A stretch of 64,000 nt of DNA, from NCBI GenBank assembly GCA_963745075.1, contig CAVUWV010000013.1, forward strand, positions 128,001 through 192,000. Direction: 5' to 3'. Source of the DNA: Candidatus Hydrogenedentota bacterium. Lineage in GTDB: Bacteria > Hydrogenedentota > Hydrogenedentia > Hydrogenedentales > SLHB01. Below, piece by piece: positions 35,802-43,685 of the stretch. The number at the start of each line of letters is the position of its first letter. Positions within the stretch are counted from its first letter, which is position 1. Below the pieces are notes generated by a model. That model searched no databases and was not told the origin of the DNA. It saw nothing but the letters and a program-made list of their open reading frames with translations. The position numbers and the translations under genes are program-made.

Positions 35802-37519
35802 TCAGTGCTCCATGACATTCCGGTACCACGCGAAGAACATCAGCAGCGCCCAGAACTGCCGCCGGCGGTACACGTTGTGGCTGGCTGACCGCACGATCGT
35901 TTCCACGATGTGCCATTGGAACAAGCCGGTGGCGTCCACGCGTTCGGGTGTAATCGTGTGATGCGCAACACTCTCAATCACGCGGAGCACCCGGCCACTC
36001 TGTGGGATCTTGAAGCCACGCCGGGCCCGTTGCCGCACCGAGCCGGGAATGCGGTGCTTCAGCGCCAGCCGTAGCAGCGGCTTGCTTCGGACCCCGAACT
36101 TCACGTCGGCCGGCACGCGCAATACAAAATCGACAAGGTCATCGTCCAGGAAGGGATGATGCAACGTGATGCCGTGGGCCGCAGCCACACGGTCGCACTT
36201 CGTCAACAACAGGTTCGGCAGGCCCACCTGCAAATCCAGGGAGAGGACGTTCCGTGTGAGATCCGGCAGCGTGAACGTATCGCGAAGGGGGGAGCGATTT
36301 CGCCCAGTTCGAACAAGGCAGATTTCATCGCGTGCGTATACAGGTCCTCGCGTTCGCCCCGATCGAACACCGACACCAGCGACAAATACGATTCCTGGGT
36401 ATCGCGAATCGCGGCGAGGCTCTGGCTGGCGCGCCGGACAATGGCATTGGGTGGCAGCGCGGGCAACAGATCGCTCACCAATCCGGCGGGCACGAACCGC
36501 TGCGCGCCCCGGGCCTTTTCCAGGTAATGGTACCGGGCGTATCCCCCCAACAGTTCGTCAGCCCCGTGCCCCGTCAGGAAGGTCTTGCCGGCGTCCGCTG
36601 CGGCTTCCGCGATCATCCACAGCGGGAAAACCGATGCCCCGGCAACCGGTTCGTCCAGTTGCCGTACGGCTCGCTGGAACCCGTCCTCCGTAAGACGCCG
36701 CGCCGGGCAAACCGCGATCGGCAACTGCATGCGGCGGGCTGATTCCTTCGCGAGACGCGCTTCATCCTGCCACGAGCGTTCCAGGCTGACAAAGACCGGG
36801 TTGGGAGTGGGGGAAACGGCGGCGAGCGCCGCGCAATCGATGCCCGCAGACCAGAGCAAACCATCGGCCGGCGTACGCCGCACGGCCTGTTCCAGCAGTA
36901 CTCCGATCCGTTCCGCGGCAGCTTCTTTGTGAATGCCCGTGGGATGGGTGTCAAACTTCCAGACGTGGAAATCGAGCAGTTCGCGTCCGTTATACTCAAG
37001 CACGTGCCCCGGGAGGACTCGGCGCGCGCCCTGGACCATCGTCTCCGAACCCGGAACGCAACGTAACGTCAAATAGCGGTCGACCGACAGGAGATCCAGC
37101 CGCCGGGGCACCAATCCCGACGCCAACAGCGCCTTGAGTTCGGACGCGAAGAGGAGGAAATCGTCCCCCTTGAAATAGAAAAGTGGGCGCTGGCCCAGAC
37201 GGTCCCGCATCAGCCACCACCGGCCGTCTTCTTTTCGAGACACCACGGCCGAAAAGGCGCCGCGCAGATGAAGCGTTTGCGGGGTATCGCGATGGCTGCA
37301 ATCCAATCCCAACGCCGCAGCGGATATGTCTTGGTCAGACGAGTCCCGCGGGCATCCATCGAGCAGGCCTGCGGGGGATTCGATGGGATGCGACGCCGCG
37401 AGCAGAAACGCGTCGCCGGAGGCCCGATGGGACACCGTCGCCCTATCCGAAAGTGCAGCCGCCATCGCATCGACGGCCGATTTGTCCTGCTTGCCAAGAA
37501 TCCCGCAGATTGCGGCCAC
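35802..37519 (-). CDS. Asparagine synthetase B-like amidotransferase, degenerate; frameshift near 36270
   Basis: RDRLGQRPLFY, FASELKAL, LTGHGADELLGGY, HPFLD, KPLLR. N-terminus is MAAICGI. Confidence 0.85.
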
Positions 37520-37522
37520 GGC

Positions 37523-37972
37523 TCAAAACGTCCTTTTGGAATCGATAAGCAACGTTACGGGACCATCGTTGATAAGTTGTACGTCCATGTGCGCGCCGAA
37601 TTCACCGGTCTCGACCGTTAGTCCTCGATCGCGCAACGCAGATACAAACAATTCGTATAACGGCACCGCTGTTTCAGGTCTCGCAGCGCCCGTAAACGAA
37701 GGGCGTCGCCCTTTGCGGCAGTCACCGAACAGCGTGAATTGTGAAATCGCCAGAATGCTGCCGCCAATGTCTGCCACTGACCAGTTGAACTTGCGATCCT
37801 CGTCAGCGAAACATCGCAATCCTACCACCTTGTCGGCGACGAGTCTGGCGTCGTCTTCCGTATCGTCCGCGCCGACGCCAAGCAACACGAGCAACCCCTT
37901 TTTGATTTGCCCGGCGACCCTGCCGTCAATGGATACCGACGCTTCATGAACCCGCTGCACGACGGCCCTCAT
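37523..37972 (-). CDS. dtd: D-aminoacyl-tRNA deacylase
   Basis: [26 protein letters not shown]. Confidence 0.97.
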
Positions 37973-38030
37973 CCGGTGTAATGAACTCCCACGTATCGTC
38001 AGTGAATGACGCAATAATGATGACAGGTTG

Positions 38031-38059
38031 AGTCTATCAAGGGGCTTCCACCAGTTCAA
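38031..38059 (-). promoter_or_regulatory. Putative sigma70 promoter of the dtd operon
   Basis: TTGAAC-17 bp-TAGACT on the minus strand. Confidence 0.55.
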
Positions 38060-38083
38060 AGGAGGCCGGGATTCAAAGAGCGA

Positions 38084-38119
38084 TAAAGAAACCCACCGCG
38101 ACTAATGCCGACGGTGGGT
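38084..38119 (-). terminator. Intrinsic terminator downstream of the 24-aa peptide gene
   Basis: ACCCACCG/CGGTGGGT stem followed by TTCTTT on the minus strand. Confidence 0.7.
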
Positions 38120-38159
38120 CTCGACCAGCCCGAATAACAGGATGCGGTGCGGTTCAACC

Positions 38160-38234
38160 TTAGTGCTGAACCGCAGGAAGCAACAATCCAATCAAGATCT
38201 GAATCAATCGAAACAGTAGATCGAAGATGCCCAT
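38160..38234 (-). CDS. 24-aa amphipathic peptide MGIFDLLFRLIQILIGLLLPAVQH
   Basis: Hand-translated. GGAGGT RBS 6 nt before the ATG, TAA stop, upstream promoter and downstream terminator. Confidence 0.7.
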   Translation of the reverse strand: MGIFDLLFRLIQILIGLLLPAVQH

Positions 38235-38333
38235 GATAAAACCTCCCTCTCCTGGGTACCGCCGGTTCGACACCATCGTTTCGTGCGGTACCCTGCGTTG
38301 TTCCCACTGCCATTGCGACTATATCACCTGGAG

Positions 38334-38362
38334 ACTATACAATCGCACACTGAAAATGTTAA
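38334..38362 (-). promoter_or_regulatory. Putative sigma70 promoter of the 24-aa peptide gene
   Basis: TTAACA-17 bp-TATAGT. Confidence 0.6.
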
Positions 38363-38692
38363 CGCAAATCCCCCCGTCGCAGCATAGCCGCTACCAAAAA
38401 GAACGCGCCTGCAGATGGTGCGAGGCACGAAAGGAACCCTGGGGCAACAATCCCTCCCGACTCGCACACAATGAGGAGATGGCCGTCCAACGCAATGAAA
38501 CGGCGTTTCGGACGGCCCTCTCGATATCGCGAATCGTTCGGGATCGGGACTGAATGGCTGGCAGAAGCAAACCGTTCGAGACGCGAAGGATCCGCAGAAT
38601 GATTTACTGAATCGCCATGGGGCAACTTCTCTGTTCCTACACTTCCCGTACAGTGCTCATCCCAGCCGAGACTACGTCCGGCTCTGGTACTG

Positions 38693-38851
38693 TTACGGAA
38701 TCGGAATGTCCTCGATTTTTGCCGCCTTTGGGCTGTCGGCGCTCACGCACTTGACCTTCCCGGTTGGCGTGTATCTGCCGCAGACGGTATCCGACTGCGC
38801 GTAACGGGGAATCATGGTGGGACGCTTGGAAATTCGCTTTGTGTGTTTCAT
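38693..38851 (-). CDS. 52-aa peptide with basic leader and two Cys (MKHTKRISKRPTMIPRYAQSDTVCGRY...KCV...IPIP)
   Basis: AGGAGG RBS about 8 nt upstream of ATG 38851; isolated in an intergenic region. Confidence 0.65.
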   Translation of the reverse strand: MKHTKRISKRPTMIPRYAQSDTVCGRYTPTGKVKCVSADSPKAAKIEDIPIP

Positions 38852-39024
38852 TGCCTTGCCTCCTGTTCTTGAGTATTGACCAATTACCTTCACATCACTC
38901 TATACTACACCGTTGGAACCGAAACGTTAGAATGTATATTCGCACCGGTGGTAAGTCTTTTGGAACAGCGAAGTTCAGCGAAGTATACTGGACTCGTAGC
39001 GGTCGGAAACGGGGAGTTTTGACC

Positions 39025-40125
39025 ATGATCGTTGGTGTGCCGAAAGAGGTCAAGCCCGGCGAGAAGCGGGTCGCCATGCTGCCCTCCGGGGTTGCCGCAT
39101 TTGCGGCACACGGCCACGAAGTGTTGGTGGAACGCGCCGCGGGCGAGGCCAGCGGCCTGACCGACGCCCAGTACCGGCAGGCGGGGGCGCGCGTCGTCCA
39201 GAAAGTGGAGAGCGTCTGGCGTCGCGCGGAGATGATCGTCAAGGTCAAGGAACCCTTCGGCGAGGAACTCGACCGGATGCGGGAAGGACAGATCGTCTAC
39301 ACCTATTTCCATCTCGCATCGGGGGAGCAGCTCACCCGGCGTCTGATGAAATACGGCGTTACGGCGGTCGCCTACGAAACTATCCAGCGCGACGACGGCA
39401 CGCTGCCCCTCCTGGTGCCCATGAGTGAAGTGGCGGGGCGTCTTGCCGTGCAAAAGGGGGCCTTCTGCCTGGAAGCGGGAAACCAGGGCAGGGGGATTCT
39501 GTTGAGCGGTGTGTCCGGCGTAAAACCCGCCCATGTCGTTATCCTCGGCGCGGGCGTGGCCGGTCAGAACGCGTGTCATATCGCGGTCGGGATGGGCGCC
39601 CACGTTACCATTCTGGACATCGACCCGTCGCGCTTGCGCTACGTGCACGATATCATGGGCGGTCACGTGACCACGCTCATGTCCAACCGCGCGACCGTCG
39701 GCGAAGAAGTGGAAAGCGCCGACCTCGTTATCGGCACCGTATTGATTCCGGGCGCCCGGGCGCCGGTGTTGGTCACGCGAGAGATGGTCAAGCGTATGCG
39801 GCCGGGGTCCGCTATTGTGGACGTGGCAATCGACCAGGGGGGATGCTGCGCCACGTCCCGGCCGACGACCCACGCCGATCCCATTTTCCGTGAATACGGG
39901 GTGGTCCACTACTGCGTGACCAATATGCCCGGGGCCGTACCGCGCACCTCCACCTACGCGCTCACGAACGTGACCCTCGGCTACGGCCTCGCCCTCGCCG
40001 ACAAGGGGATTGAACAGGCTATCGCGGAAGATCCGGCTCTTCGACGCGGACTGAACGTCTATCACGGCAAGGTCACCCATCAGGGTGTCGCCGATGCCTT
40101 CGGGCTCACGTGCGCCGAGATCTGA
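39025..40125 (+). CDS. ald: Alanine dehydrogenase
   Basis: MIVGVPKEVK, VKVKEP, PMSEVAGR, DVAIDQGGC, NMPGAVPRTST. Confidence 0.96.
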   Translation: MIVGVPKEVKPGEKRVAMLPSGVAAFAAHGHEVLVERAAGEASGLTDAQYRQAGARVVQKVESVWRRAEMIVKVKEPFGEELDRMREGQIVYTYFHLASGEQLTRRLMKYGVTAVAYETIQRDDGTLPLLVPMSEVAGRLAVQKGAFCLEAGNQGRGILLSGVSGVKPAHVVILGAGVAGQNACHIAVGMGAHVTILDIDPSRLRYVHDIMGGHVTTLMSNRATVGEEVESADLVIGTVLIPGARAPVLVTREMVKRMRPGSAIVDVAIDQGGCCATSRPTTHADPIFREYGVVHYCVTNMPGAVPRTSTYALTNVTLGYGLALADKGIEQAIAEDPALRRGLNVYHGKVTHQGVADAFGLTCAEI

Positions 40126-42098: not shown

Positions 42099-43685
42099 TG
42101 TCAAAGCTCGATTAAAATGTCCCCGGTGTTAACTCGTTAGAAATGTCCCCTGTTTTTTGTTTTCTGCTACAGTAGGTGGACTTGGCGGGAGGATAGGGCA
42201 ACGCTGGAGAGCGACCTGAGCGCCCGTCAGGTGGATAGACGGTTCCGGGACAGCCACCCCGGGTGGGGTGGCTGTCCCGGCTTTTTGTAACCGGAATCCT
42301 GCAAAGCGAAAAACTCATTGGTTCTTTCCGATGCCACTGGCCATCATGCCACGCGCCGCTTGCGCCATGGGTGGTCGTGGCGGGGTTTTGGTTTTGATGG
42401 GGGGGTGCTGGCCTTGGGCTTTTTCGCGGCGGGCTTGGCGGGTCTGCACGGCGGTTCGTCGAGTTGTTCATAGTCGAGTTTGTGACCGTTGTACACGAGG
42501 TGAATGCTTCCATCGAGCCAAGTGCGTACGAGGACCTTGTGCTTCGGTTTGGGCAAGTGCTTCTTGGTTTTGTGTATTTGGAAAAAGCGGTTTTGGTGAC
42601 GAACGGTCCAGTCATTGCCCACGGTACGGTACTCTTCAAAGCAGAACACGTCGCGCAGGTCGACGTTCTTGGGGAGCCGACGGTGGAGGTTATGCGTCTT
42701 TTGTGCGGGACGGGCAAACTTTTCGTTGAGGTGGTCGACGAAGCCGTTTTCCAGTAAGGCATTGGTCTGCTCAATGGTGGTGATTTGGCGTAAGCGCAGT
42801 TCGTGGAACAGGCGGTCTTGATAGACGCCGTGATTGCGTTCCACCCGGCCTTTGGCTTGAGGGCTGTAGGCGGTAATGATCTGAATTCCCAGCTTTTTAC
42901 AGGCTTTTCCGAAGCTGGTCAAGGGTTCTTCGTCCGCCAACTGCTCTTCCACCGTCGGTTCGCGCTCCGTGACATATACGGTCTTGCGGTCACAATACAG
43001 CGCCTTGGGGACGCCGTAACGCTCAATCCACTTCCACAGGGTCCGCATGGCAGCCTCGGTGGTTTCTTGGACATCCATCGTAGCCAAGGTACGCCCCGTG
43101 GCGTCGTCCACCAGATTCATCAGACACGCTCGGGGATAGTCGGGACCGAACCAGGCGTGGTGACTGCCGTCGAACTGGACCAACTCTCCGAAGTGCTCCT
43201 TACGCGGCCGCCGCGTTCGATGGGGACCCCGTTTGCGGGCTCGTTGCCAAAGCCCCGCCGCAATCAGCCAGCGCCGCAGCGTCTCGTGGTCCAGCACCAA
43301 ACCCTCCTCCGCCAGCTTCTCGGCCGCCAACGTCGGACCCATGCCCTTGTAGCGCTCCTCGTAACGCGCCAGCACCTTCTCCCGCATTTCCGGGGGCTTG
43401 GCCCGCGCAGACGACTTCCCGCGCCGCCGGTGAACCAGCCCTACATCTCCTTCCCGGCGATACCGCGCATACACCCGCTTACACTGCCGGTAGCTCAACC
43501 CCAGCATCTCCGCCGCCTCACGCAGCTTCAACGCACCACTCTTCACACGATCCAACACCGACTTGCGCGTACGCTCCTTGCGACTCATCAAAATGTCCCC
43601 TTCCACGCAGCCTCCTTTCTAAGGCCGCAACCATGGGGACATTTCTAATGAGTTTTCCAGGGGACATTATCAAAGAGTTTCGACA
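42099..43685 (-). mobile_element. Complete IS1202-family (formerly ISNCY) insertion sequence, 1587 bp, with 16-bp target duplication
   Basis: Imperfect ~50-bp TIRs starting TGTC, each with two AATGTCCCC units. Flanking direct repeats CGGACGAATCGATCTC at 42083-42098 and 43686-43701. Confidence 0.9.
42344..43606 (-). CDS. DDE transposase (IS1202/ISNCY)
   Basis: N-terminal HTH, GELVQFDGSHHAW, DDAT, LYCDR, SPQAKGRVER. Confidence 0.93.
   Translation of the reverse strand: MEGDILMSRKERTRKSVLDRVKSGALKLREAAEMLGLSYRQCKRVYARYRREGDVGLVHRRRGKSSARAKPPEMREKVLARYEERYKGMGPTLAAEKLAEEGLVLDHETLRRWLIAAGLWQRARKRGPHRTRRPRKEHFGELVQFDGSHHAWFGPDYPRACLMNLVDDATGRTLATMDVQETTEAAMRTLWKWIERYGVPKALYCDRKTVYVTEREPTVEEQLADEEPLTSFGKACKKLGIQIITAYSPQAKGRVERNHGVYQDRLFHELRLRQITTIEQTNALLENGFVDHLNEKFARPAQKTHNLHRRLPKNVDLRDVFCFEEYRTVGNDWTVRHQNRFFQIHKTKKHLPKPKHKVLVRTWLDGSIHLVYNGHKLDYEQLDEPPCRPAKPAAKKPKASTPPSKPKPRHDHPWRKRRVA

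Follow-up and report, generated by a model that had tools for sequence, protein, structure and literature searches.

The 52-aa leader-plus-core peptide encoded in the window (the whole 64,000-nucleotide stretch of Candidatus Hydrogenedentota DNA analysed here) is best read, from its sequence, as a conserved orphan precursor of a Hydrogenedentota peptide system that we refer to as the MKH-leader system. We lean towards the peptide being a substrate in trans, whose leader would be bound by an RRE and cut after PRYA by a CPBP protease, and whose cysteine-paired 34-aa core an ABC transporter would export, the link between peptide and processing genes resting on the likeness of their leaders. The system is apparently undescribed: full-text searches of the main text of openly available articles found no paper describing it, and papers that name Hydrogenedentota together with gene clusters mention the phylum one to three times each in their available text. 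Throughout, G000 denotes the source genome, G001-G005 its congeners, C a contig and L a fetched stretch.

The peptide gene and its locus

The gene lies on contig C13 between dtd and the divergent alanine dehydrogenase gene (ald), and reads on the minus strand from an ATG at 38851 to a TAA stop ending at 38693 (Table 1). The 52-residue translation, the AGGAGG ribosome-binding site (RBS), the PRYA motif and the two cysteines eleven residues apart were all as described in an earlier note on this DNA; an in-frame GTG 14 codons upstream of the ATG is without a comparable RBS. Cleavage of the leader would fall after Ala18, releasing a core with four lysines, the invariant K34 among them. The best 11-residue Kyte-Doolittle window reached only -0.26 within the first 25 residues and 0.06 over the whole peptide, bearing out the note's view of a basic N-terminus without a hydrophobic Sec helix. 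Its further claim, that the leader is of neither Sec nor double-glycine type, agrees with the lack of an h-region, the Arg at -3 and the PxxA end.

Table 1. Coordinates of the peptide locus (window positions) and of the candidate remote cassette
Feature	Position	Strand	Basis or remark
52-aa leader-plus-core peptide gene	38693..38851, stop included	minus	orthologues and purifying selection
Shine-Dalgarno AGGAGG	38859..38864	minus	7 nt before ATG; retained in G003, G004, G005
Leader, residues 1-18	38798..38851	minus	basic block MKHTKRISK, spacer, PRYA at 15-18
Core, residues 19-52 (34 aa)	38696..38797	minus	C-x10-C conservation
Core cysteines	Cys24 38780-38782; Cys35 38747-38749	minus	eleven positions apart
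Conserved upstream box, -10-like hexamer then GTGAAGG	38887..38909	minus	divergent from ald
24-aa hydrophobic ORF with GGGAGG	38160..38234	minus	3' of peptide gene
Terminator-like hairpin then U-rich tail	38086..38122	minus	z = -4.13 for folded 96-nt stretch
Candidate processing cassette	G000:C20:133,688-140,571		contig other than peptide gene's C13

The upstream box aligned in G000, G003, G004 and G005, with a similar box in G001 and G002, and probably marks the promoter and 5' end of the peptide gene; a sigma-70 scan did not call it. On the 3' side, the hydrophobic ORF was found downstream in 4/4 congeneric genomes carrying the peptide gene, with which it is likely co-transcribed, and also in G001 and G002, where the peptide gene is missing; it is not an obligate partner. 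The hairpin, not called by a simple terminator scan, would close this two-gene unit, and Rfam gave no match in 37900-39100.

In G000, about 455 nt separate the two genes (38236-38690, minus strand); in three congeners the distance is about 95 nt. At its start, the longer spacer aligns to the congeners' hydrophobic ORF but breaks off within a few codons, as a decayed duplicate might. Members of the hydrophobic ORF family are 24-46 aa long and end in LIGLLLPA[VI]Q (for example 38160-38234, minus strand, and G000:C18:100121-100243; L117-L131), a motif present in 6/54 family genomes, all of the source genus, with two to four matches each. One of the 15 matches (L117) is a prepilin-type protein of 154 aa that contains this helix, so that the small ORFs resemble a prepilin membrane helix encoded on its own; the ORF at 38160-38234 had no Pfam match. 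Elsewhere in the window, a 420-aa transposase-like ORF at 42344-43606 (plus strand) shares identical first 100 residues with another at G000:C26:74053-75315, as expected of a multi-copy insertion sequence, and an asparagine-synthase-like gene at 35802-37519 (minus strand) appears to be divided into a 438-aa and a 143-aa ORF in different frames, which overlap near 36200; a frameshift or sequencing error may be the cause.

Conservation and distribution of the two-cysteine subfamily

The peptide gene occupies the same place in three congeneric genomes, where the orthologues are 80% identical to the source peptide and DNA similarity (BLAST) begins exactly at its stop codon. Comparison of the source peptide with these congeners gave pS of 0.79-0.82, with synonymous sites saturated, against pN of 0.15-0.17; among the three congeners themselves the values were 0.22-0.28 and 0.02-0.04. 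Because saturated synonymous divergence accompanies low non-synonymous divergence, the ORF is confirmed as a real coding gene under strong purifying selection. That the peptide had no Pfam, NCBIfam, PDB or ESM Atlas match might speak for a spurious ORF, a reading with next to no chance, as it is already refuted by pS/pN and the RBS and stop codon are conserved and 21 homologues exist.

A profile search retrieved 21 homologous proteins, the query included, in all of which M1, H3, C24, G25, K34, C35, V36 and A43 were invariant. P15 and A18 were each conserved in at least 90%, with the same leader pattern in 18 paralogues, and Gln directly followed PxxA in 15/21 homologues. Across all homologue records, C-x10-C was present in 32/32 and CG-x8-KCV in 31/32. 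An exhaustive search of 1.84 billion representatives yielded 16 matches, of which 14 were family members and two artefacts; the latter (P0032 and P0033, long representatives) were tandem-repeat proteins whose score was summed over repeats, and were left out. An AlphaFold2 model of the peptide (mean pLDDT 58.7, low confidence) placed strands at residues 22-27 and 32-37, and tentatively predicts a beta-hairpin core in a register that would set Cys24 opposite Cys35; Foldseek found no significant fold match for it.

Full-length matches to the peptide occurred in 7/135 genomes of the phylum, in one copy each, within one family and four genera. Candidatus Hydrogenedentota or Hydrogenedentes was named in 2/3 titles of contigs with full-length matches, the third being Nitrospiraceae, and in both of the two homologues that carried an organism name. 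Weak or partial matches were not counted, namely those in G130, G008 and G082 (partial, two with an internal stop), those in G120 and G084 (in or over other long ORFs) and three non-Hydrogenedentota loci (partial, 16-30 residues). The gene was not found in two of the five congeners, G001 and G002 (81% and 93% complete), and since both retain ald, the upstream box and the downstream small ORF without the peptide, it is an accessory gene.

The leader as a family tag

The leader consensus MKH-x-xx-[ILVM][ST]K..PxxA was found on about 25 other small ORFs of the source genome, with the leader conserved and the paralogue cores unrelated to each other. Among 25 curated tagged ORFs, two lie at the cassette and seven follow M4 protease genes; the other 16 are dispersed, either alone or a few together. 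Three checks were independent of the source gene. A strict leader DNA pattern gave 109 matches in 27/31 related genomes, compared with two for a reversed-pattern control. A profile of 34 cassette-linked peptides (11 cassettes, other genera; peptides selected with a regex covering these very positions) ranked the source leader eighth of 244,884 small ORFs, the top 15 all being curated members. In ORFs longer than 120 aa, 0/147,429 starts scored at least 12, confining the tag to small ORFs. A self-trained leader profile (score at least 10, Shine-Dalgarno match of at least 5 nt) retrieved 19 ORFs compared with one in the reversed genome, a count that is circular in that its seeds belonged to the training set. 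The commonest leader end was PAKA, and an apparent minus-strand bias of tagged ORFs (11/11 in the first regex matches) vanished with a wider search.

These results confirm what the earlier note had put forward, that MKHxxxIS/T...P..A leaders recur in the phylum, and the search for paralogous leaders that it proposed has succeeded. Its picture of a dispersed system with remote machinery is matched by the scatter of tagged ORFs and the candidate cassette on C20. The idea of a conserved leader with a variable core holds for the leader and for the family of unrelated cores, and needs amending for the source peptide, where purifying selection has kept the core conserved throughout its subfamily.

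Two M4 thermolysin-type protease genes (L010:4851-8201 on G000:C9 and L011:4212-6911 on G000:C18) are followed by five and two leader-like two-cysteine peptides, respectively, with a diverged MRRI-type start.

A candidate cassette on another contig

The C20 cassette opens with two leader peptides and three GNAT-fold genes. An Rce1/CPBP protease comes next, then an ABC ATPase with an ABC-2-like permease and, last, a CteB-like protein of 641 aa. Cassette order was examined in 14 stretches fetched from other genomes, five of them chosen for a nearby leader match: leader peptides head a complete cassette in 12/14, and among the nine stretches not chosen by leader match seven held a complete cassette and two only the permease and CteB-like gene. 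Most relatives have two GNAT genes rather than three. The peptidases and exporters that the earlier note had advised looking for are thus co-located with tagged peptides at this cassette, though the source gene has no processing gene beside it.

The CteB-like protein combines an RRE, a barrel without CxxxCxxC, four SPASM cysteines and a C-terminal GNAT fold. It was detected in 123/135 phylum genomes and 83/86 high-quality ones, with a single match in G000; the 12 genomes without a match were nine of family f3 (G062-G064, G066 and G068-G072) plus G093, G094 and G032. Similarity to CteB (5WGG) was evident by sequence (E 1.4e-20), by profile (7.6e-49) and in fold, where it was the best match (2.4e-17), and the score of 77.7 against TIGR03974 lay below the cut-off of 425. 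The radical-SAM CxxxCxxC motif was carried by 0/35 sequences, and by 0/30 at the aligned site, and in the SPASM region only C394, C397, C403 and C426 were conserved, the first SPASM cysteines of CteB being replaced. The RRE, modelled as three strands and three helices, retains the acidic residues E60, E63 and E67 of CteB. Cysteines C24, C26 and C29 of the RRE (L023:13335-13610, minus strand) were conserved in 33-34/35 sequences and absent from CteB, and are a possible metal site near the leader-binding strand.

Among the remaining components, the CPBP protease appears catalytically intact in its motifs, with EExxxR, FxxxH and HxxxN/D in 13/13 cassettes. The GNATs resemble RimL/SpeG/PseH types, and the acyl-CoA-binding glycine motif is mostly missing in GNAT1 and GNAT3; acylation of the core by these proteins seems doubtful. 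The ATPase had ABC_tran-type matches only, with no C39 domain reported, and scored best against DrrA-type resistance ABC models, under their cut-offs. No lanthionine synthetase was seen in the cassette. A hydrophobic stretch of at least 1.3 was present in 26/34 cassette-linked peptides, and 28/34 had no core cysteine. In L075-L087, the last peptide before the first GNAT gene differs from the other, variable cores in having a Trp-rich one (NA.WRAW.D..Y.KK) that is highly conserved across distant families, making it a candidate founding substrate or regulator.

Proposed route and rival explanations

Along the favoured trans route, the basic MKHxxxIS block would add a beta-strand to the RRE, in the way CteA binds CteB, the CPBP protease would cleave after PxxA, and the ABC transporter would carry the 34-aa core (QSD...IPIP) over the inner membrane. 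The core would then fold to a hairpin with Cys24 opposite Cys35, the pair either joined in a disulfide or holding a metal; acylation by a GNAT may or may not happen. The mature peptide would most likely act outside the cytoplasm, where it would have one fixed partner and be a signal or antagonist specific to the lineage; such a partner would account for purifying selection on an accessory gene. The available text of PMC6231123 describes the CteA leader as bound to the CteB RRE as an added beta-strand. SCIFF precursors from 18 IMG/VR loci start MERIKTIAT or MKRIKTLET, and under the G000 leader profile these N-termini rank among the best 0.13% and 0.02%, respectively, of the small ORFs in that genome. 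Given these scores, the CteB homology and the strand binding of CteA to its RRE, leader and receptor plausibly descend jointly from a SCIFF pair. A prediction of the RRE-peptide complex scored 0.16 against a mark of 0.32, with controls not folded, and carries no weight either way.

Going further, it is possible, though on balance doubtful, that a SCIFF maturase became in Hydrogenedentota a pure leader receptor feeding the CPBP protease and ABC pump, giving a nearly phylum-wide secretion route addressed by a 15-18-residue tag. The tag would then sit on unrelated mini-folds, amphipathic helices at the cassette and cysteine-stapled hairpins elsewhere, and its recognition may involve a metal bridge between leader His3 and the RRE cysteines C24, C26 and C29. 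Against processing in trans, the neighbours of the peptide gene include no processing gene, and its core is polar (best window 0.06) compared with the hydrophobic cassette-linked cores, which the membrane protease may prefer. As local machinery, ald, dtd, an M28 peptidase and the asparagine-synthase-like gene were rejected because orthologues in three other genera have different neighbour genes, and ald and the downstream ORF also because G001 and G002 keep both without the peptide. DsbA, DsbB, VKOR and Thioredoxin_4 had no match in G000 (89.7% complete), and among the other carriers of the peptide gene DsbB was found in 0/5 and VKOR in 1/5; enzymatic disulfide formation is therefore unsupported. 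In the available text of a review of RiPP leader proteases, CPBP or CAAX do not occur (PMC10885120).

There is a small but real chance that the peptide acts inside the cell, where its leader, as a tag for sorting or regulation, would dock it on the RRE protein, and Cys24/Cys35 would bind metal or work as a redox switch. This would suit the missing Dsb or VKOR system of G000, a polar core unlike those of the cassette, the degenerate GNAT motifs, the gain of C24, C26 and C29 in the RRE and the invariant His3 of the leader; however, PxxA is kept at the leader/core boundary over unrelated cores, with Gln next in 15/21 homologues in the manner of a cleavage site, and the cassette retains an intact protease and exporter. 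Abi/CPBP proteins, ABC-2 pumps and RimL-type GNATs act in bacteriocin and microcin immunity, so that the peptides could instead be bacteriocin-like and the cassette mainly a means of self-protection, capturing leader-bearing peptides rather than maturing them. The sub-cut-off preference of the ATPase for DrrA-type resistance models agrees, but we hold this quite unlikely, as immunity would call for recognition of the toxic part in its mature form rather than of a common leader, the RRE, with its homology to a leader-binding maturase, is one of the best-conserved parts, and the surroundings of the paralogues showed no other export route.

Less probable again is that the peptide serves another system (the M4-linked arrays, a lasso cluster or another radical-SAM enzyme), its leader resembling those of the cassette by ancestry only. 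Seven leader-like peptides do lie behind M4 protease genes on C9 and C18, but their MRRI-type leaders have diverged and score below the source leader. Also present in G000 are two radical-SAM/SPASM genes, both intact, and a PqqD gene that stands alone. The PqqD/RRE gene (G000:C26:71502-72607, minus strand) adjoins two short precursors of a different leader type, which we take to be the lasso type (YxxPxLxxxG), the cluster apparently being a lasso-peptide one, and one of the radical-SAM genes presumably encodes an anaerobic sulfatase maturase, which it resembles. It is very improbable that the leader is a Sec signal of atypical form, removed by signal peptidase I at a site resembling A-x-A: the basic N-terminus, the Pro four residues before the presumed cut, the Ala at -1 and the prevalence of PAKA would fit, yet the leader has no hydrophobic region (-0.26 at best) and the tag heads no long protein. 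Moreover, 9/20 motif-bearing homologues have R, K, E, Q or M at -3, Arg in the source peptide among them, and none of these is accepted there by signal peptidase I.

Implications

If the favoured trans route is correct, almost all members of an uncultured and little-studied phylum process and export peptides by a pathway that escapes current family libraries. Its central component would be a radical-SAM maturase that has lost its catalytic function, and a CPBP protease would serve as leader peptidase. As a short portable tag on unrelated cores, the leader opens the pathway to direct tests in E. coli and may be of use for secreting peptides. The source peptide adds a conserved, soluble two-cysteine core class, and is the best test of the cassette acting in trans on cores unlike its own.

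Comparison with known systems

Class II and PCAT bacteriocins and pheromones combine a short leader, a small core with a cysteine pair and export. The peptide described here likewise has a short leader, a small two-cysteine core and likely export, but no double-glycine site, its leader ending in PxxA. The leader reader is here an RRE protein, the transporter consists of an ABC-2-type ATPase and a permease, and the CPBP protease is a protein apart. Signal peptidase I substrates differ again, as the hydropathy and -3 residue given above indicate.

Selidamide GNATs acylate Lys or Orn side chains, according to the available text of PMC8784127. GNAT-superfamily proteins are encoded with precursors in both cases and the core here has Lys, but the GNATs are RimL/SpeG/PseH-like with degenerate acyl-CoA motifs, and the 18-aa leader, without a Pfam match, is no NHLP/proteusin or Nif11 leader. 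Of the earlier note's "RiPP-like or secreted-peptide", the secreted-peptide system is the better supported; a heavily modified RiPP is less so, with the radical-SAM motif gone and the GNAT motifs degenerate.

The closest relative is the SCIFF/ranthipeptide system (CteA, TIGR03973; CteB, TIGR03974, PDB 5WGG and 5WHY), CteB being the top sequence and fold match of the cassette protein, with a homologous N-terminal RRE in which the acidic residues are kept, and SCIFF precursor N-termini score well under the leader profile. The cassette protein differs in lacking CxxxCxxC (0/35) and having only four SPASM cysteines, and the cassette adds a fused GNAT fold, a CPBP protease and an ABC-2 exporter. 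SCIFF precursors (TIGR03973/PF13165) have six cysteines in about 45 residues and adjoin their maturase gene; the source peptide has two cysteines only and no Pfam or NCBIfam match, and lies on C13 with the CteB-like gene on C20. Cores here are unrelated to the six-cysteine core, and precursors are dispersed by the dozen. A TIGR03973 search of the genome was blank, as were its controls. The peptide is not a SCIFF or ranthipeptide member, because it departs from them in precursor core, radical-SAM motif, SPASM domain and linkage.

Prochlorosins and synechococsins, in the available text of PMC10783134 and PMC9872173, pair one promiscuous machinery (ProcM, SyncM) with many precursors that share a leader and have unrelated cores, and to that extent the arrangement here is alike, with one machinery and many precursors. 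The leader here is however 15-18 aa long, not of Nif11 type and without a double-glycine end, no lanthionine synthetase is visible in the cassette, and the cores are conserved across genera under purifying selection. Overall, the source peptide shows the conserved leader and variable core of RiPPs in general, and carries the M[KR][HR]x-xx-[ILVM][ST]..PxxA leader in a genome that holds the cassette, the two features that mark the MKH-leader system.
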